Positions 1,717-60,868 of a stretch of DNA of 64,000 nt are shown in pieces. Source of the stretch: Rickettsia typhi (GTDB lineage: Bacteria > Pseudomonadota > Alphaproteobacteria > Rickettsiales > UBA1997); NCBI GenBank assembly GCA_945901265.1, contig CAMDJZ010000005.1, positions 856 through 64,855 on the forward strand, written 5' to 3'. Both the position numbers and the translations under genes were made by a program. How positions within the stretch are numbered: the first letter of the stretch is position 1; every line of letters begins with the position of its first letter. The notes beneath the pieces were generated by a model. The model ran no database searches, was not told where the DNA came from, and was given only the letters and a program-made list of their open reading frames with translations.

Positions 1717-4026
1717 ATGGCTAACAAAATAAATAATAATTCAAAAAATTCCAGCATCCACTCTAATAAAAGCTCAAAAGAAATTGAAGCATTGCAATTC
1801 CATATGCAAGGTGGACAGGCTGGAAAAGTTGCAATGCATGCAACTAAACCATTAAATACACAGCGTGATTTAGCCTTAGCATATTCGCCAGGAGTTGCGG
1901 TGCCTTGCCTAGAAATCGAAAAAAATCCTGAAACCGCTTACGATTATACTGCTAAAGGAAATTATGTTGCAGTAATTTCTAATGGCACAGCTGTTCTTGG
2001 TCTTGGGAACCTTGGGGCTTTAGCAAGTAAGCCAGTAATGGAAGGAAAGTCAGTTTTATTTAAGAGATTTGCTGATATTGATTCCGTTGATATCGAAGTT
2101 GCCACTGAAAATGCTGATGAATTTATCAATGCCGTAAAATACCTTGGCCCAACTTGGGGTGGAATTAATCTTGAAGATATTCGCGCGCCAGAGTGCTTTA
2201 TTATCGAAAGCAAATTACGCGAATTAATGGATATACCAGTATTTCATGACGATCAACATGGAACGGCAATTATTTCCGCCGCAGGAATTATAAACGTCCT
2301 ACATTTAGCAGGTAAAAAATTTAATGAAATAAAAGTTGTAGTCAATGGCGCAGGTGCTGCTGGAATTGCCTGTTTAGAACTTTTAAAAGCCATGGGCTTA
2401 CCACATGAAAATGCAATTTTATGCGATACAAAAGGAGTAATCTTTAAAGGCAGAGCTGATGGCATGAATCAATGGAAATCAGCTCATGCTGTTGATACAA
2501 AATTGCGCACTCTATCTGAAGCAATGAAAGGATCAGATGTGTTTTTAGGACTTTCTGTTAAAGGAGCGGTTTCTCAAGAGATGGTAAAATCAATGGCAAA
2601 AAATCCAGTGATTTTTGCAATGGCCAATCCTGATCCTGAGATTACTCCCGAAGATGTCCATGCCGTTCGTGATGATGCAATTGTTGCAACTGGTCGAAGT
2701 GACTATGAAAACCAGGTTAATAATGTTATGGGTTTTCCATATATTTTTAGAGGCGCTCTTGATGTTAGAGCTTCAACGATTAATGAAGAAATGAAAATTG
2801 CCGCAGCCCATGCATTGGCAGAATTGGCTCGCGAAACTGTTCCTGACGAAGTAGTTAAAGCCTATGGCGGAAGAGAAATGAAGTTTGGAAAACATTACAT
2901 TATTCCTACCCCATTTGATTCAAGATTAATTTATACAATTCCTCTAGCGGTTGCTAAAGCTGCTGTTGAAACAGGTGTTGCGCGTAAACCAATTACTGAT
3001 TGGGACGAATATAAAAAGCAATTAAAAGCGCGACGCGATCCATCAGTAAACAGTCTTGGCTTTATTTTTGAAAAATTAAAAAGATCCCCAAAAAATATTA
3101 TTTTTGCTGAAGGTGAGCAAAATGAAGTAATTAAGGTTTCGGCAATGTGGCGAGATAATGGTTATGGTAAACCAATTTTAATTGGCAAGAAAGAAAAAAT
3201 TCTTGAAAAAATGAATGAATTCAATATTGCCAGTGATGGGATTGAAATTTATAATTCCTCTTTATCGGATGAAAATAATAAATTTATCGATTATCTTTAT
3301 AAAAAACTTCAACGCAAAGGCGTTTTACAATCTGATTGCGCAAGAATGGTAAAAACTGATCGTAATGTATTTGCGGCTTCAATGCTTGCTTGTGGTCATG
3401 GCGATGCCCTGCTTACAGGATTGACAAGAGGCTACAGCACTTCATTAAATGACATTTGGAAAGTTATAAGAAATAAAAAAGATCATATTGTTCTTGGAAT
3501 TTCAATGATTATTTCTAAGGGTCGAACAATTTTTATTGCCGATACTGCCTGTTCAGAATTATCATCTTCGGAGCATTTAGTTAATATCGCAATTCAAACT
3601 GCAAATAAAGTTCGCTCAATGGGCTATGATCCGCGAGTGGCATTTTTATCCTTCTCAAATTTTGGAAGTGCTTTAAAAGCCGAATCTGGTCGTATTAAAA
3701 AAGCTGTTGAGTTGCTTGATGATATGAATGTTAATTTTGAATATGATGGCGAAATGACTGCCGATGTTGCATTGAATCCGGATAAAATGTCAAAATATCC
3801 ATTTTGTCGCTTAACAGCTAGTGCCAATATTTTGATTTGCCCAGGACTTCATTCGGCAAGTATCGCCACAAAACTTCTTGAGGAAGTTGGAAATTGTACA
3901 GTCATTGGACCAATCCTTGACGGGTTCGAAAAACCTGTTCAAATTATCACAATGCGTTCATCAATTAATGATATTCTTAATATGGCAGCTATTGCTAGTA
4001 TTGACGCGATAACTGAAAAAAAATAA
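1717..4026 (+). CDS. maeB: NADP-dependent malic enzyme with C-terminal phosphate acetyltransferase-like domain
   Basis: 769 aa. Malic enzyme motifs LALAYSPGVA, VISNGTAVLGLGN and FHDDQHGTAI, followed by a PTA-like C-terminal half. Confidence 0.93.
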   Translation: MANKINNNSKNSSIHSNKSSKEIEALQFHMQGGQAGKVAMHATKPLNTQRDLALAYSPGVAVPCLEIEKNPETAYDYTAKGNYVAVISNGTAVLGLGNLGALASKPVMEGKSVLFKRFADIDSVDIEVATENADEFINAVKYLGPTWGGINLEDIRAPECFIIESKLRELMDIPVFHDDQHGTAIISAAGIINVLHLAGKKFNEIKVVVNGAGAAGIACLELLKAMGLPHENAILCDTKGVIFKGRADGMNQWKSAHAVDTKLRTLSEAMKGSDVFLGLSVKGAVSQEMVKSMAKNPVIFAMANPDPEITPEDVHAVRDDAIVATGRSDYENQVNNVMGFPYIFRGALDVRASTINEEMKIAAAHALAELARETVPDEVVKAYGGREMKFGKHYIIPTPFDSRLIYTIPLAVAKAAVETGVARKPITDWDEYKKQLKARRDPSVNSLGFIFEKLKRSPKNIIFAEGEQNEVIKVSAMWRDNGYGKPILIGKKEKILEKMNEFNIASDGIEIYNSSLSDENNKFIDYLYKKLQRKGVLQSDCARMVKTDRNVFAASMLACGHGDALLTGLTRGYSTSLNDIWKVIRNKKDHIVLGISMIISKGRTIFIADTACSELSSSEHLVNIAIQTANKVRSMGYDPRVAFLSFSNFGSALKAESGRIKKAVELLDDMNVNFEYDGEMTADVALNPDKMSKYPFCRLTASANILICPGLHSASIATKLLEEVGNCTVIGPILDGFEKPVQIITMRSSINDILNMAAIASIDAITEKK

Positions 4027-4031
4027 ATTTT

Positions 4032-4484
4032 ATGGCACAACCACTCTCATCTCATTTAGTATCACAAATCCTAACAAATGAAGAATCCCCCCGATTGTCA
4101 AAAGAATCTGTTCACAATGGATCAGCGATGTCTTCAACTGATGGGCAAGCTATTGCTCCGGGAGGTGGTGGAATGTCGCAAGGAATTGGTGGATCAATTG
4201 GCAAAACACTAAGTTCTATAAAATTAGAGTCACCTTTTGGTGGCGGAAAAATCGATGGCTTCATGGATACACTAAATCAAAATGCTGCTTTAGGAAAAAA
4301 TCCCTTTGAAGTTTTTGATGGCACGATGCTTTCACCAGCGGCCAAACCTGATTTTGCAGCTCAAATGCAGGAATTTTCATCTATGCAAAAAATTGAAATT
4401 AAATCTGCACTTGGAGCAATTAATGCTGACATTGCTGGACATACTGGCGTAATATCTCAGCAACAAGGCGGACAATCACATTAA
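4032..4484 (+). CDS. Hypothetical Gly/Ser/Gln-rich protein, no recognisable domain
   Basis: 150-aa ORF starting 5 nt after the maeB stop and ending 2 nt before the next ORF. Its composition is unlike the Asn/Lys/Ile-rich local average. No signal peptide is seen. Confidence 0.5.
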   Translation: MAQPLSSHLVSQILTNEESPRLSKESVHNGSAMSSTDGQAIAPGGGGMSQGIGGSIGKTLSSIKLESPFGGGKIDGFMDTLNQNAALGKNPFEVFDGTMLSPAAKPDFAAQMQEFSSMQKIEIKSALGAINADIAGHTGVISQQQGGQSH

Positions 4485-47108: not shown

Positions 47109-50100
47109 ATGAACAAAAAAAATAATTATCCACAGCCCAATCAAAACTTTAACTTTTCTAAGATGGAAGAGGAAATTTTGCAATTTTGGAATGATCAAAA
47201 AATATTTGAAAAATCTGTCGAAATACGCAACTTTTCCAATATATTAGATGAAGATAATACCTCGCCAATCATTGATAGTTGCGCCTTAAAAGACCATACG
47301 AATTGTCGCAATCACCAAAATAATCAAAGAAATGAATTTGTGTTTTATGATGGCCCTCCATTTGCTAACGGACTTCCGCATTACGGTCATCTTCTTACGG
47401 GTTTTATAAAAGATTTAGTTGCTCGCTATCAAACTATGAAAGGTAAAAAAGTTGAACGTCGTTTCGGCTGGGATACTCATGGCTTACCAGTAGAAATGGA
47501 GACTGAAAAAGAATTAACTAAGCTCGAAGGAAAATCAATATCTGGACAAATTGCCATTCAAGAATATGGGATAAAAAAATTCAATGATGCTTGTCAAAAA
47601 TCAGTAATGAAATACGCAGGTGATTGGGAAAATTATGTCACTCGTCAAGGGCGTTTCGTGGATTTTAAAAATAGTTACAAGACCATGGATCTAAACTATA
47701 TGGAATCGGTTTTATGGGCATTTAAAGAACTTCACAATAAAGGTTTGCTTTATGAAGATTTTCGTGTCGTACCATATTCCTGGGCGTGTCAAACTCCGCT
47801 TTCAAATTTTGAAACGCAAATGGATAATTCGTATAGAAAGAAAGCGAGCAAAGCGGTAACTGTTTTTTTTACTTTAAAAGAAATACCAATCCATATCACT
47901 GCAGTTAAGCATACCATTGAGGAGTTAAAATTAGCTGGGCATGAAGTTAAATTTTTTAAGTTGTTAGCATGGACAACCACCCCATGGACATTACCCTCAA
48001 ATCTCGCCTTGGCAGTAAATCAAGATATTTCCGGATATCAGATGTATTTTGATTTAGAAACTGAGTCTTTAGTTATAATGGTTTGTTCAAACACTATTAA
48101 TCAATCTGGTTACACAAGTTTTAGATTAGATGTTCTTTATCCCAAAAGATTCATTAGTTCAATTCCCCTTTCCTCCAAGGATTTAGATGTTGTAATTCCG
48201 GATCTCAAGTCAGATCAACTATTCTCTTCCCATTCCTCCAAGGAAATTGAAGAACTAGGATCTTCTCATGCAATGAATTGTATTTCAGGAAAAGAGTTGT
48301 TAGGTTTAAAATATACTCCACTTTTTCCTTATCTCGCCAATCACGAAAAAATAAAAAATAATCCTAAAGCATTCACTATTCTTCAAGGCGATTTTGTTAC
48401 AGCGGATCAAGGAACTGGAATTGTTCACATCGCCCCAGGATTTGGCGAAGACGATCAATTACTATGTAAAGCCAATGGTATTCCAACTCTTTGTCCGGTA
48501 GATGCAGGTGGAAAATTTACAAACGAAATTTTTGATATTAAATTTAATCAATCTATAAACCCCTCTTTCTTTGAACAAGAGGACTCTAAAACCCCCTCTT
48601 TCTTTCAGGGAGAGAACTCTAAAACCTCCTCTCCCTTCCAGGGAGAGAACTCTAAAACCTCCTCTCCCTTCCAGGGAGAGGGTTGGGGTGAGGGTAAAAA
48701 TCTTACTCACTTAGCCAAAAATCTTCGTAAAAACGACACTGATTTAGAAAATAAACTTTGGCAAGCAATAAGAAATCGTCAAATTACTAATCAAAAATTC
48801 CGTCGTCAACATCAAATCGATAATTACATTGTTGATTTTGTATGTTTAGAAAAAAATTTAATTATCGAATTAGATGGATCGCAACATGGATCTACTGAGA
48901 ATATTGAGCATGATAAATCAAGAACAAAAAATTTAGAAAAACAGGGATATAAAGTTTTAAGATTTTGGAATAACGAAATATTTGAAAATTTTAATGGAGT
49001 GCTAGACAAAATATGGTTAAGTTTGCAAAATGACCCTCACCCTACCCTATCCCTGGAAGGGAGAGGGAATGATCGAGATCAATTGAACGAAGGGAATGAT
49101 CGATATCAATTCATAGGAGATATTGATAATTATAACTCTTCAAAAAATGACAAAAAAGACCAAAATGAATTTGAAATTTTATCATTAAAAAATCGCCAAG
49201 TGTTCGACACTAATGACGACATAATTCGCTATCTCAAAACCAATAATAATTGGCTAAAAACTGATCAATATCTCCATAATTATCCACATTGCTGGAGAAC
49301 AGACACTCCGCTAATCTACAAAGCCGTTAGTTCATGGTATGTTAAGGTTACAGCTTTCAAAGATCGTATGGTTGAATTAAATCAACAAATAAATTGGATT
49401 CCAAACCACATTAAGGATGGACAATTCGGTAAATGGCTTGAAGGTGCAAGAGATTGGTCAATCACCCGCAACCGCTTCTGGGGTTGTCCCGTACCAGTTT
49501 GGAAAAGCAAGTCAGGCAAAATAAAAGTCTTTGGCTCGATTGCTGAACTTGAAAAAATTTCTGGCCAAAAAATTAACAATTTACATCGTCCTTTTATTGA
49601 TGAAATTGTTTTTACTGAAGATGGCGAAGAATTTCGTCGGGTTAGCGATGTCCTTGATTGTTGGTTTGAAAGCGGATCAATGCCTTATGCGCAAGTTCAT
49701 TATCCTTTCGAAAATAAAGAATGGTTTGAAGAAAATTTTCCGGCCGATTTTATTACCGAATATGTTGCGCAAACGCGAGGATGGTTTTATACTTTAATGG
49801 TTTTATCGACCGCATTATTTGATCGCGCACCTTTTAAAAATGTCATTTGTCATGGAACAATTTTAGATGAAAAATCTCAAAAACTTTCTAAGCGCCTGCA
49901 AAATTATCCCGATCCTTTGCAAATTTTTCAATCAGTTGGCAGTGACGCGATGCGTTTTTACATGATCTCACAACCAGTTATGCGTGGACAAGAATTAAAA
50001 ATCGATAGGGAAGGAAAGGCTATACAAGATAGTTTTCGTATTTCAATCAAGCCATTAATTAACGCTTACAATTTCTTTTGTCTTTACGCCAATGCTGATA

Positions 50101-50447
50101 AAATTTGTGCCAAAAGAATTGAATTAAAAAATGAATTTAAAAATATTTTAGATCGCTATATTTTGGCAAAATTAAAAAGTTCTATAAATGCTATAGATAA
50201 GGCGATGCAGAATTATGATACTGTTTTAGCTTGTGAAGAATTTAATAATTTTTTCGAAGTTTTAAATAATTGGTACATTAGAAGAAATCGTCAAAGATTT
50301 TGGAAAAGCGAAATTGATCAAGACAAGCAAGATGCTTATAATGTACTTTACACTGTTTTGACCTTGATGTGCGAAACATCTGCTCCACTCTTGCCTTTTA
50401 CTACCGAATTTATTTGGAGAAATTTGACGTTAGCAGTAGATAATTAA
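47109..50447 (+). CDS. ileS: Isoleucine--tRNA ligase, type 2 (eukaryote-like), with an in-frame foreign insertion and no C-terminal domain
   Basis: FYDGPPFANGLPHYGH (HIGH), WTTTPWTLPSN, GTGIVHIAPGFGEDD (editing), YPHCWRTDTPLIY, WFESGSMPY and KLSKR (KMSKS). About 216 codons at 48537-49184 are foreign (see the mobile_element entry). The ORF stops 10 aa after the PFTTEFIW helix. Confidence 0.9.
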   Translation: MNKKNNYPQPNQNFNFSKMEEEILQFWNDQKIFEKSVEIRNFSNILDEDNTSPIIDSCALKDHTNCRNHQNNQRNEFVFYDGPPFANGLPHYGHLLTGFIKDLVARYQTMKGKKVERRFGWDTHGLPVEMETEKELTKLEGKSISGQIAIQEYGIKKFNDACQKSVMKYAGDWENYVTRQGRFVDFKNSYKTMDLNYMESVLWAFKELHNKGLLYEDFRVVPYSWACQTPLSNFETQMDNSYRKKASKAVTVFFTLKEIPIHITAVKHTIEELKLAGHEVKFFKLLAWTTTPWTLPSNLALAVNQDISGYQMYFDLETESLVIMVCSNTINQSGYTSFRLDVLYPKRFISSIPLSSKDLDVVIPDLKSDQLFSSHSSKEIEELGSSHAMNCISGKELLGLKYTPLFPYLANHEKIKNNPKAFTILQGDFVTADQGTGIVHIAPGFGEDDQLLCKANGIPTLCPVDAGGKFTNEIFDIKFNQSINPSFFEQEDSKTPSFFQGENSKTSSPFQGENSKTSSPFQGEGWGEGKNLTHLAKNLRKNDTDLENKLWQAIRNRQITNQKFRRQHQIDNYIVDFVCLEKNLIIELDGSQHGSTENIEHDKSRTKNLEKQGYKVLRFWNNEIFENFNGVLDKIWLSLQNDPHPTLSLEGRGNDRDQLNEGNDRYQFIGDIDNYNSSKNDKKDQNEFEILSLKNRQVFDTNDDIIRYLKTNNNWLKTDQYLHNYPHCWRTDTPLIYKAVSSWYVKVTAFKDRMVELNQQINWIPNHIKDGQFGKWLEGARDWSITRNRFWGCPVPVWKSKSGKIKVFGSIAELEKISGQKINNLHRPFIDEIVFTEDGEEFRRVSDVLDCWFESGSMPYAQVHYPFENKEWFEENFPADFITEYVAQTRGWFYTLMVLSTALFDRAPFKNVICHGTILDEKSQKLSKRLQNYPDPLQIFQSVGSDAMRFYMISQPVMRGQELKIDREGKAIQDSFRISIKPLINAYNFFCLYANADKICAKRIELKNEFKNILDRYILAKLKSSINAIDKAMQNYDTVLACEEFNNFFEVLNNWYIRRNRQRFWKSEIDQDKQDAYNVLYTVLTLMCETSAPLLPFTTEFIWRNLTLAVDN
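48560..48695 (+). repeat. Four tandem ~33-bp units, each carrying a short palindrome (CTCTCCCT-TCC-AGGGAGAG), inside ileS
   Basis: Units at about 48560-48591, 48592-48624, 48625-48657 and 48658-48695. They translate in frame as PSFFEQEDSKT / PSFFQGENSKTS / SPFQGENSKTS / SPFQGEGWGEG. The patch is locally GC-rich in an AT-rich gene. Confidence 0.9.
48661..49066 (+). mobile_element. Inverted-repeat-bounded DUF559 (Vsr-like PD-(D/E)xK) endonuclease cassette fused in frame within ileS
   Basis: Left IR is 48661-48695 (CCTCTCCCTTCCAGGGAGAGGGTTGGGGTGAGGGT). Right IR is 49033-49066 (ACCCTCACCCTACCCTATCCCTGGAAGGGAGAGG), about 31/35 reverse-complement identity. Between them lies LRKNDTDLENKLWQAIRNRQITNQKFRRQHQIDNYIVDFVCLEKNLIIELDGSQHGS...DKSRTKNLEKQGYKVLRFWNNEIF, which matches the DUF559 pattern. 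Confidence 0.75.
49065..49118 (+). repeat. Imperfect 27-bp tandem duplication abutting the right inverted repeat (GGGAATGATCGAGATCAATT... / GGGAATGATCGATATCAATT...)
   Basis: Read directly. The first 20 nt differ at one position. Translated in frame as NDRDQLNEG / NDRYQFIGD. Confidence 0.8.
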
Positions 50448-59770: not shown

Positions 59771-60868
59771 TTAATTATTAAATCGGAAATGAAATACATC
59801 GCCATCCTGAGTAATATATTCCTTGCCTTCAAGCCTTAATTTTCCTGCATTTTTTACACCATCTTCGCCTTTAAAAGCAATGTAGTCATCATAACTAATT
59901 GTTTCAGCACGAATAAATCCCTTTTCAAAATCGGTATGAATTGCTCCTGCAGATTTTGGAGCATTGGAACCTTTTTTAACAGTCCAAGCGTGACATTCTT
60001 TTGGTCCAACTGTAAAAAAAGAAATTAATTCAAGCAAGCTATATGCGCTACGAATTATTTGCGATAAACCTGTTTCATGTAAACCAATTTGCTGTAAAAA
60101 TTCTTGTTTTTCAGCTTCAGTTTCAAGACTTGCAACATCAGCTTCAATCTGCGCACAAATCTTTAAAGCCATAAAATTTTCTTTTTTTACAAAATCTTCA
60201 ACTGCATGCCAATATTTATTTCCAGCTAGCTCATGCTCTTTTAAATTACAAACAAACATTTGCGGTTTAGCAGTAATTAATTGTAAATTTTTTAAAATCT
60301 TTTCCTCATCGATATTTTTAATTTCAACGCTACGTGCTATTTTACCAATTTTTAAAACTTCCAAAACTCTTTTTGCTATTACAATTTGTCCCTCAACTTC
60401 CTTATCGGTTTTTAATTTTTTTTCTAAAGTTGGAATTCTTTTTTCAAGACTTTCAAGATCAGCAAGTATTAGCTCCAATTGAATCAATTCAATATCGCGA
60501 AGAGGATCAACATTATTTTCCACATGAGTAATATTTTCATCGTCGAAGCATCTAACAACATTTATAATTGCATCAACCTCACGAATATGCGACAAAAATT
60601 GATTACCCAAACCCTCACCCTTACTAGCCCCGCGAACTAATCCAGCAATATCAACAAATTCAATTTGGGCAGGAATTAACTGCGCTGAACCAGCAATTTC
60701 GGCAAGTTTAGTCAAGCGTAAATCAGGAACATTCACTCTTCCAACGTTTGGCTCAATTGTACAAAAAGGATAATTAGCTGCTTGCGCTTGCGCAGTTTGT
60801 GTTAAAGCATTAAACAAGGTCGATTTACCAACGTTTGGCAAGCCAACAATTCCACATTTTAAAGACAT
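59771..60868 (-). CDS. ychF: Redox-regulated ATPase YchF
   Basis: GIVGLPNVGKSTLFNAL, the NYPFCTIEPN G-domain, and a TGS-like C-terminus (HTDFEKGFIRAE). Confidence 0.95.
   Translation of the reverse strand: MSLKCGIVGLPNVGKSTLFNALTQTAQAQAANYPFCTIEPNVGRVNVPDLRLTKLAEIAGSAQLIPAQIEFVDIAGLVRGASKGEGLGNQFLSHIREVDAIINVVRCFDDENITHVENNVDPLRDIELIQLELILADLESLEKRIPTLEKKLKTDKEVEGQIVIAKRVLEVLKIGKIARSVEIKNIDEEKILKNLQLITAKPQMFVCNLKEHELAGNKYWHAVEDFVKKENFMALKICAQIEADVASLETEAEKQEFLQQIGLHETGLSQIIRSAYSLLELISFFTVGPKECHAWTVKKGSNAPKSAGAIHTDFEKGFIRAETISYDDYIAFKGEDGVKNAGKLRLEGKEYITQDGDVFHFRFNN

Follow-up and report, generated by a model that had tools for sequence, protein, structure and literature searches.

A DUF559 nuclease cassette with hairpin-bearing inverted repeats, apparently tolerated in frame within the isoleucyl-tRNA synthetase gene of freshwater Rickettsiales

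Introduction

How can a nuclease remain lodged inside an essential gene? Selfish nucleases are thought to persist in such genes only within self-splicing introns or inteins. The question is raised by ileS, the gene for isoleucyl-tRNA synthetase (IleRS), in the stretch of DNA analyzed here, a window of 64,000 nucleotides from contig CAMDJZ010000005.1 (assembly GCA_945901265.1, positions 856 to 64,855 of the forward strand), deposited as Rickettsia typhi and placed in UBA1997 of the Rickettsiales by its GTDB lineage. The original prediction, made from the letters of this window, held that a complete DUF559 endonuclease cassette with terminal inverted repeats is fused in frame within the CP1 editing region of IleRS, where it would apparently rely on plain read-through translation. 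The survival of a nuclease cassette in an essential gene by staying in frame in a tolerant loop appears to be an arrangement without a published description: the prediction knew of none, and we found no account of it in the literature on DUF559, EDxHD nucleases and in-frame homing elements, or under its repeat and peptide strings.

Results

The host gene was identified as ileS by its matches to TIGR00392 (793 bits, cut-off 621), PF00133 and PF08264. It is a single open reading frame (ORF) in which a loop of the CP1 editing domain carries ~213-216 extra codons; relatives that are empty at this point encode proteins of ~825-900 amino acids, and the gene order glyS-hom-ileS-trxB-fabG-cvpA is common to the window and to filled and empty alleles. 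A 96%-identical allele, with gene order unchanged, is found in the NCBI metagenome-assembled genome (MAG) GCA_945869925.1, and comparison with it gives a ratio of nonsynonymous to synonymous substitution rates (dN/dS) of 0.03-0.16 for ileS. The insert consists of a full-length DUF559/Vsr-like domain, two linkers predicted to be disordered, and GC-rich inverted repeats of 35 nt. The GC content is 34% for the gene, 27% for the domain interior and 63-66% for the inverted repeats. All these features lie on the plus strand of the window:

47109 to 50447, plus strand: ileS, isoleucyl-tRNA synthetase host gene, single ORF of 1112 amino acids including the insert (ORF, TIGR00392, PF00133/PF08264)
48537 to 49184, plus strand: whole in-frame insert, 216 codons according to the original prediction (alignment with empty alleles, stop count)
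48552 to 48680, plus strand: left linker, a 33-nt tandem array with 3.9 copies of 11 codons, encoding ..PSFFQGENSKTSSPFQGENSKTSSPFQ.. (TRF)
48661 to 48695, plus strand: left terminal inverted repeat, made of the hairpin CCTCTCCCT-TCC-AGGGAGAGG (48661-48681) and the G-rich tail GGTTGGGGTGAGGGT (48681-48695)
48699 to 49025, plus strand: DUF559/Vsr-like PD-(D/E)XK nuclease domain, IleRS residues 531-639 (Pfam, fold match)
49033 to 49067, plus strand: right terminal inverted repeat, made of the C-rich tail ACCCTCACCCTACCC and the hairpin CCTATCCCT-GGA-AGGGAGAGG
49064 to 49184, plus strand: right linker, a pair of 27-nt repeats (49064-49117, ..GNDRDQLNEGNDRYQF..) and then an A-rich spacer

The GTGxVHxAPxFGxxD editing motif and the YPHCWR block bracket the insertion point. 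When the insert was excised in silico, the flanks were colinear with yeast IleRS (7D5C, 284-471) and with Thermus thermophilus IleRS (1ILE), and the alignment of the flanks places nothing at the insert position in either structure, in agreement with the claim that the segment has no counterpart in canonical type-2 IleRS. The junctions of the fusion would be spanned by the peptides ..EIFDIKFNQS.., ..GEGWGEGKNLTH.. and ..EILSLKNRQ... Because empty alleles read ..EIFD[L/I]..|..LSLK.RQVF, I477 and L691-S692 may be host residues, and the true limits of the insert, ~48540-49178, are good to 1-3 codons. Between 48537 and 49184 there is no in-frame stop over 216 codons, as against 12-31 stops in the remaining five frames; at the composition of the insert the probability of a stop is 0.078 per codon and that of a stop-free run is ~2.6e-8, so that the open frame is indeed unlikely to be random, as had been argued from a rougher estimate.

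The nuclease domain is complete. Pfam PF04480 (DUF559) matches it with an E value of 2.7e-38 and 130.6 bits (gathering cut-off 20.6) over profile positions 2-108 of 109, nested within the tRNA-synt_1 match, which bears out the predicted in-frame cassette in CP1. The NCBIfam model PRK09767 scores 92.8-96.2 bits on the window protein, under its equivalog cut-off of 218, and the domain is therefore not a YcjD orthologue. In E. coli ycjD, a degenerate right hairpin is all that is left of the repeats. Among structures in the PDB, the core matches in sequence the Neisseria 'endonuclease-like protein' 3HRL (E=2.7e-22) and, more weakly, the catalytic domain of I-Bth0305I, 3R3P (E=0.005). An AlphaFold2 (AF2) model of the insert, built from 71 DUF559 homologues, has a core with a predicted local distance difference test score (pLDDT) of 80.8 and unordered repeat-encoded ends; Foldseek ranked 3HRL first for this model with a template modelling (TM) score of 0.86 (root mean square deviation 2.4), then 3R3P (TM 0.73), then Vsr (1CW0/1VSR). 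Vsr, DUF559 and I-Bth0305I belong to one PD-(D/E)XK clade in the published classification (PMC3424549; PMC3239194). The AF2 model of full-length IleRS is poor (pLDDT 52), too poor to place the domain relative to the editing pocket, and it agrees with residues 543-641 being folded (pLDDT 64-83) and with both linkers scoring below 50.

The putative catalytic residues D141, E152, D154, H158 and D167 (A2 numbering; VDF..IELDG..H..D), whose retention had been predicted, are invariant in 11 aligned filled alleles. The same D/E/D/H/D constellation is invariant across the 71 DUF559 homologues, free-standing ones included, and the D of VDF aligns with D196 of I-Bth0305I. The domain has a dN/dS of 0.15-0.30, with 0.15 in both comparisons that use the window allele, against 0.08-0.21 for the host and 0.3-0.8 for the linkers, and its low level matches that of the N-terminal half of the host. 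These ratios indicate that purifying selection acts on the nuclease domain, and nuclease activity would presumably be retained in the fusion.

The two arms of the inverted repeat are complementary at 32 of 35 positions with one gap, so that the GC-rich imperfect repeats of the prediction are real, with the right arm ending at 49067. Each arm is a hairpin with a 9-bp stem followed by a G-rich tail; the left repeat is translated as ..SSPFQGEGWGEG.. and the right one as ..DPHPTLSLEGRG.., and the motifs are beyond chance (no match in 100 shuffles). In nine alleles whose host proteins are 75-80% identical, the repeats are near-invariant in nucleotides: hardly any change affects the motif CCCTCTCCC-loop-GGGAGAGGG-TTGGGGTGAGGG or its complement, the stems being fixed and the loops variable. 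Since 1-nt indels shift the encoded peptide (GEGWGEG to GEGGVRG; HPHPTLSPQGRG to HPHPNPLPSRERE) yet leave the DNA motif intact, the constraint on the repeats is on the nucleic acid. With 63-66% GC, the repeats have not followed the drift of the domain interior to 27%. Folded as RNA, the arms are predicted to pair as a stem of ~35 bp around the nuclease ORF (-121.9 kcal/mol, z=-8.15), and it is conceivable that they work either as DNA or as RNA.

Outside the arms lie tandem repeats that, like the hairpin and G-rich tail structure, are missing from the original prediction. The 33-nt array of the left linker (3.9 copies) is built from copies of the left hairpin in progressive stages of decay; residues 482-542 are predicted to be disordered (pLDDT <50) and have a dN/dS of 0.3-0.5. 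The right linker, with its two 27-nt repeats, is likewise predicted to be disordered (residues 642-688, pLDDT <50; dN/dS 0.5-0.8), and one filled allele, P0001, has extra copies of the 27-nt unit. Both units, 33 and 27 nt, are multiples of three. The tandem copy number differs among near-identical alleles, the proteins of which (1108-1134 amino acids, one 90% cluster) are all intact.

We then considered whether the insert is removed before IleRS matures. Translation of the insert contains no in-frame ATG of the nuclease's own, inspection by eye found no ATG, GTG or TTG in the stretch that separates the left repeat from the catalytic core, and neither a terminator nor a promoter was found above chance within the insert. 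Pfam finds no Hint or intein domain in IleRS, and the indel ends, ..KKPI|Q in the filled allele P0006 and ..EIL|SLK in the window, have no C-terminal HN and no Cys, Ser or Thr at +1. An intein is ruled out by the absent Hint domain and the wrong junction residues, as the prediction had it, and the insert must therefore stay in the mature protein. A group I or group II intron is ruled out by a frame that is continuous with the host and by the covariance models of Rfam, none of which attains its gathering score on any part of the window. An assembly artefact or chimera is ruled out as well, the same architecture being present in independent NCBI, ENA and JGI assemblies. From the reading frame we infer that the IleRS-nuclease fusion is translated.

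The distribution of the insert was examined in a set made of the window protein and its 120 best homologues (n=121), from related freshwater Rickettsiales MAGs. DUF559 is present in 17 of these 121 IleRS, the other 104 being empty, and all 17 inserts occupy one site in the alignment (..GGKFT.EIFD|insert|LSLK.RQVFDTNDDII), have the flanks PSP..GEGWGEG and (H/D)PHP..GRG in common, and include no degenerate or truncated cassette. The arrangement is thus not the one-off that it had seemed, and the presence of the insert at the same site in at least 17 alleles implies that it is old in this freshwater group. The genomes nearest to the window are freshwater 'Rickettsiales bacterium' MAGs, and a scan of genome contigs with the junction alignment returned, among the matches listed, insert-free IleRS alone. 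In a neighbour-joining tree of the host core, filled alleles stand at at least eight separate places among empty ones. The closest pair, P0006 (filled) and P0051 (empty), have 98.9% DNA identity over 2661 nt save for one clean indel of 525 bp (175 codons), which takes in the linkers and reaches 33 nt and 81 nt past the repeats. There is no target-site duplication at both ends of this indel; one 16-nt near-repeat lies on its left side. This polymorphism, which suits the selfish-looking insertion first proposed, would accord with spread from allele to allele by recombination, most plausibly nuclease-aided. The observations that had been named as telling against the prediction (a homologous segment in IleRS of unrelated lineages, a missing DUF559 match, arms that are not reverse-complementary) were not made.

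Other insertions have reached the same loop. In a relative (L010, ~4124-4250), three consecutive small in-frame hairpins occupy it: CCCTCTTT-TTC-AAAGAGGG, CCTCCTTT-GAA-AAAGGAGG and TCAATCGC-GCC-AGCGATTGA. At the same position, a Deianiraeaceae MAG (L020, 4001-5098) has a GNAT-like insert of ~270 amino acids and Deianiraea vastatrix (L021, 4001-4669) an unrelated insert of ~125 amino acids. In a UBA1997-like lineage that includes contig CAXNJM010000001.1, the C-terminal 634-664 amino acids of IleRS are a separate gene, which begins with ATG exactly where the window insert ends (MAIISLNNRQVF.. / MLSLKNRQVF..):

L006, 3995-5962: stand-alone C-terminal ileS gene
L174, 9830-11803: stand-alone C-terminal ileS gene
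L173, 10001-11995: stand-alone C-terminal ileS gene

The split, which appears permanent and leaves a C-terminal gene of 655-664 amino acids at these loci, occurs in three independent assemblies and in two syntenies (upstream a ubiB-like gene, or uvrC and an unknown ORF) without Ns, no N-terminal half lies within 4-10 kb, and clusters P0406-P0409 and P0412 (62-99% identity) all begin at the split point. Since the split gene starts there, the site tolerates even a break of the chain, and an element at this site may have caused the fracture of ileS.

Three side observations concern this loop and other variable sites of the family. Sequence L008 (~4124-4190) is listed with L010 as evidence for an insertion hot spot in the CP1 loop. 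A GNAT acetyltransferase insert of ~200 amino acids follows ..DRMVELN in P0007, P0058 and P0103 (A1 columns ~1015-1225) and takes residues ~75-290 of the L006 ORF; in this IleRS group it occurs with or without the DUF559 insert, and NCBIfam holds a dedicated model of GNAT-containing IleRS, NF040702, for which the window protein is far under the cut-off. Finally, in the insert-free IleRS P0042 a repeat-like peptide, STPSPLVGEGWGEGKK, stands alone in frame at another variable site (A1 columns ~290-320), which suggests that the hairpin and tail unit can exist without the nuclease.

The cassette is widespread outside ileS. An exhaustive profile search collected 40,177 DUF559 representatives (E<1e-3), and among the best 150 of them the domain is stand-alone in 98, a terminal fusion in 31 and internal in 19. 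Internal and near-terminal hosts include AroE, MiaA, PrmC, LipB/LplA, a GHMP kinase, a protein that has a domain of the TsaD family (PF00814), a small (MTS) methyltransferase, a protein with the AP-endonuclease-2 fold, other class-I aminoacyl-tRNA synthetases, and several methylase and specificity subunits of restriction-modification systems; in two RecO representatives the domain lies near the C-terminus, and in a different IleRS type it lies at another CP1 site. In most host examples whose flanks were read, repeat-encoded peptides like those in IleRS stand on both sides of the domain. The in-frame hosts are as follows:

In-frame cassette hosts (metagenomic proteins): P0262, P0276, P0282, P0291/P0392, P0311, P0330, P0377, P0382, P0385, P0277, P0363

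Most of 120 DUF559 homologues start and/or end with the translated repeat motifs GEG../..PxP (..SLEGRGQGEG.., ..HPHPNPPLEGEG..). A metagenome scan with the insert alignment gave, among the matches listed, 80 unrelated DUF559 loci, and a random sample served for a census of repeats: inverted repeats of at least 18 nt join the flanks in 39 of 64 loci, most of which have a C/T-rich stem, a short loop and a G/A-rich stem, like the ileS cassette. A free-standing example is the annotated DUF559 gene between sufB and sufC, within the suf operon, of Sphingomonas parapaucimobilis (NZ_CP155753.1; L092, 1490-1945), the left repeat of which is CCCCTCCCC-TTCA-GGGGAGGGG followed by CCGGGGGTGGGGC and the right repeat its perfect reverse complement. 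The ATG comes directly after the left repeat in this gene, and the purine-rich tail may therefore double as a ribosome-binding site. Free-standing DUF559 genes with the same ends, which it had been suggested to look for, thus exist. The repeats, proposed as the ends of this particular insertion, are real and at the same time not special to it, being the usual flanks of DUF559 genes throughout bacteria. The cassette is not enriched in phages or plasmids: three weak phage matches and plasmid matches to ordinary DUF559 genes leave a phage or plasmid vector unsupported.

Discussion

Our preferred interpretation, to which we give a probability of about 0.55, is that ileS of the window carries a selfish nuclease cassette that lies in a permissive loop, where translation reads through it and the enzyme tolerates it. 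A compact cassette of a type widespread in bacteria, made of a DUF559 nuclease gene of ~110 amino acids between hairpin-bearing inverted repeats, would have entered a surface loop of the CP1 editing domain, in a stop-free frame, in an ancestor of this freshwater Rickettsiales group. With no splicing of RNA or protein, the ribosome would simply read on, and IleRS would gain a nuclease domain held on two disordered linkers, which it may tolerate because the loop is permissive. The cassette would then persist by passing between ileS alleles of the population through homologous recombination, most likely biased by nuclease cutting of insert-free alleles, that is, by homing-type gene conversion, with the repeats acting as its functional ends at the level of DNA. 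That purifying selection acts on both the catalytic domain and the DNA ends argues for a cassette that still works on its own behalf; homing, or nuclease-driven spread, is what we infer from these sequence patterns.

Several observations weigh against this interpretation. The homing-like character proposed at the outset holds for the fixed site and the coexistence of filled and empty alleles, but neither the distribution of mismatches between P0006 and P0051 nor sliding-window identity profiles reveal a co-conversion tract, and there is no clear incongruence between trees. The insert tree (neighbour-joining) recovers the two major host clades, so that vertical descent with losses explains much of the pattern. 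A hint of transfer comes from P0013, whose insert groups with those of P0008, P0011 and P0012 while its host stands elsewhere. Synonymous divergence (dS) between the window and P0006 is 0.66 for the domain and 1.0-1.3 for the host; the lower value of the domain hints at transfer, a comparison that is only suggestive because these values are near saturation. No NUMOD or helix-turn-helix (HTH) DNA-binding region, to which characterized EDxHD homing endonucleases owe their long target, accompanies DUF559 between its two disordered linkers, and it is puzzling how ~110 amino acids without one would find the ileS site. The 64-kb window holds a single cassette, with no further copy of the domain and no solo repeat. 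Finally, long retention under purifying selection is also expected of a domesticated domain.

Four other explanations are possible, and we rank them here by decreasing likelihood. Domestication, in which a once-mobile cassette was exapted to give IleRS an activity of benefit to the host (cleavage or binding, defence, regulation), is in our judgment unlikely. It would account for the retention of the same site while hosts diverged to ~75% protein identity, for a domain dN/dS of 0.15 with invariant catalytic residues, and for an insert tree that broadly parallels the host clades, in a family that gathers other accessory domains such as the GNAT insert of NF040702. However, 104 of 121 close relatives do without the insert, one of them being 98.9% identical to a filled allele, a protein domain has no need of repeats conserved at the nucleotide level, the same cassette sits in unrelated genes and intergenic sites, and the linkers are disordered and fast-evolving. 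Between the parasite and the domesticated domain that the original prediction had left side by side, the evidence favours the parasite. The invariance of the five putative catalytic residues in 11 aligned alleles, a domain dN/dS as low as that of the host N-terminal half, GC-rich repeats kept despite strong AT pressure, and 17 alleles without a degenerate or truncated copy also make it improbable that the cassette is an inert relic, hitch-hiking dead in ileS, constrained just to fold and to spare IleRS, and patchy through recombination and deletions. Such a relic would fit the single copy in the 64-kb window without other repeat copies, the missing co-conversion signal and a DUF559 interior ameliorated to host composition (27% GC).

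Hairpin and tail ends are found across phyla at many loci, and the cassette must therefore reach new sites. It might do so by repeat-directed transposition akin to that of miniature inverted-repeat transposable elements (MITEs), REPINs or RAYTs, the nuclease recognizing its own hairpins, the cassette being cut at hairpin elements or copied from one to another, and the ileS polymorphism reflecting excision and insertion and not allele conversion; the solo peptide STPSPLVGEGWGEGKK at another site of the empty P0042, the small in-frame hairpins in the same loop of L010 and the 16-nt near-repeat beside the left end in P0006 would agree with this. We nevertheless regard transposition in ileS as doubtful and hardly probable, given that 17 of 17 IleRS inserts lie at a single site, that the P0006/P0051 indel ends 33 nt and 81 nt outside the repeats with no target-site duplication flanking both ends, that DUF559 is no known transposase, and that the window holds no multicopy repeat family. 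Removal of the insert before it takes effect, whether by RNA processing (the 35-bp stem being cut and religated), ribosome bypass or atypical protein splicing, seems to us very improbable. The pairing of the arms around the nuclease ORF in the predicted RNA and a constraint on nucleic acid rather than peptide would be in its favour. Against it, the nuclease has no in-frame ATG and is in the host frame throughout, the linkers that lie outside the stem keep the frame with their 33- and 27-nt units, the junction residues are unlike those of an intein, and there is neither an Rfam family at threshold nor a Hint or intein domain. We know of no mRNA splicing mechanism of that kind in bacteria.

The ileS cassette resembles several known systems in part. 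It has the nuclease fold of EDxHD homing endonucleases such as I-Bth0305I, with their constellation of catalytic residues, and like them it occupies one set position in an essential, conserved gene, with a presence/absence polymorphism. I-Bth0305I has an N-terminal NUMOD/HTH DNA-binding region and resides in a group I intron, and its relatives are found in split inteins or free-standing (Taylor et al. 2011, PMC3239194; Dassa et al. 2009, PMC2677866). In contrast, the ileS cassette is a catalytic domain of ~110 amino acids alone, without intron or intein, translated in its host and flanked by hairpin-bearing inverted repeats. Inteins with homing endonucleases likewise interrupt an essential gene in frame at a conserved site, are translated together with the host protein, occur sporadically and bring a nuclease; they differ in having a Hint domain and splice-junction residues. 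An in-frame, unspliced life style is also that of the ShiLan element, recently described from actinophage DNA methylase genes: by its abstract, it is an insertion that is neither intein nor intron, has a homing-like distribution and no stops in the host frame, and presumably forms a translated loop in its host protein (Arsenault, Gosselin & Gogarten 2025, PMC11855218). According to the same source, the ShiLan endonuclease is of the HNH type, lies in another reading frame and has its own GTG start, whereas the ileS nuclease has another fold, the host frame and no in-frame ATG; the hosts differ too, a phage methylase as against an essential bacterial gene, and the ShiLan abstract mentions no conserved terminal hairpin repeats such as those of the ileS cassette (PMC11855218).

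Likenesses to repeat families concern the DNA ends. Rickettsia palindromic elements (RPEs), known from work attributed to Ogata et al. in 2000, reportedly insert in frame in coding genes; they are non-coding repeats of ~100-150 bp, present in many copies per genome and without a passenger gene. The resemblance to RPEs drawn by the prediction stands for a general property alone, namely in-frame palindromic DNA in Rickettsiales genes that is tolerated as extra surface peptide, and extends to the small in-frame hairpins in the same loop of a relative. It is otherwise an analogy only. The window has no dispersed copies; the ileS repeats enclose a complete nuclease domain, occur once in 64 kb and have a motif common to DUF559 cassettes of many phyla. 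REP and REPIN elements and their RAYT transposases, said to have been characterized by Nunvar in 2010 and by Bertels and Rainey in 2011, likewise combine a single-copy gene between inverted GC-rich hairpin repeats with a motif that is recurrent within a genome or lineage. However, RAYTs are HUH/Y1 enzymes, as opposed to a PD-(D/E)XK nuclease, and the 64-kb window has no extra copy of the hairpin. As in a transposon or MITE with terminal inverted repeats, the arms are complementary (32/35 nt) and conserved in nine alleles; unlike in these, there is no target-site duplication and the indel limits do not fall at the repeat ends.

It is conceivable, and we put it forward tentatively, that DUF559 genes and their hairpin repeats form an unnamed and widespread class of mobile cassettes that can live as extra domains in frame without splicing of RNA or protein, whose host-expressed nuclease acts on hairpin ends and/or empty sites, and that can reshape essential genes, the last point being suggested by the related Rickettsiales lineage in which ileS is split at the insertion point. 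If survival by read-through in tolerant loops is confirmed, DUF559, a family of more than 40,000 cluster representatives, would acquire both a function and a life style, the conserved DNA ends of the cassette would be defined, and strange metagenomic 'fusion' annotations, of which 'isoleucyl-tRNA synthetase/very-short-patch-repair endonuclease' is one, would be explained. The cassettes would also mark permissive insertion sites in essential enzymes and provide a natural example in which an element may have led to the splitting of an essential gene.

Some minor features of the window are worth recording. A second lineage-specific extra segment of ~60 amino acids (..VCSNTINQSGYTSFRLDVLYPKRFISSIPLSSKDLDVVIPDLKSDQLFSSHSS.., 48099-48269, IleRS residues ~331-387) is confined to the window protein and the 96%-identical allele; this segment, which is not GC-rich, is predicted to be disordered and gave no domain match. 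At 60604-60637, where the GC content is locally high, AGTAAGGGTGAGGGT weakly matches the repeat tail with 3 mismatches, probably by chance or as coding sequence. An ORF of 82 amino acids on the minus strand (48462-48710, ..TLTPTLSLEGRGGFRVLSLEGRGG..) crosses the left repeats and is most likely a by-product of palindromic stop-free repeat DNA, not a gene. From a practical standpoint, assembly and gene calling fail at the tandem repeats on either side of the cassette: in a 250-kb scaffold (L086), they have caused 100-N gaps at 3305-3404 and 3892-3991 with cut-off gene calls, and the truncated ORFs P0244 and P0241, which might be taken for split genes, reflect only such 100-N scaffold gaps within tandem repeats.

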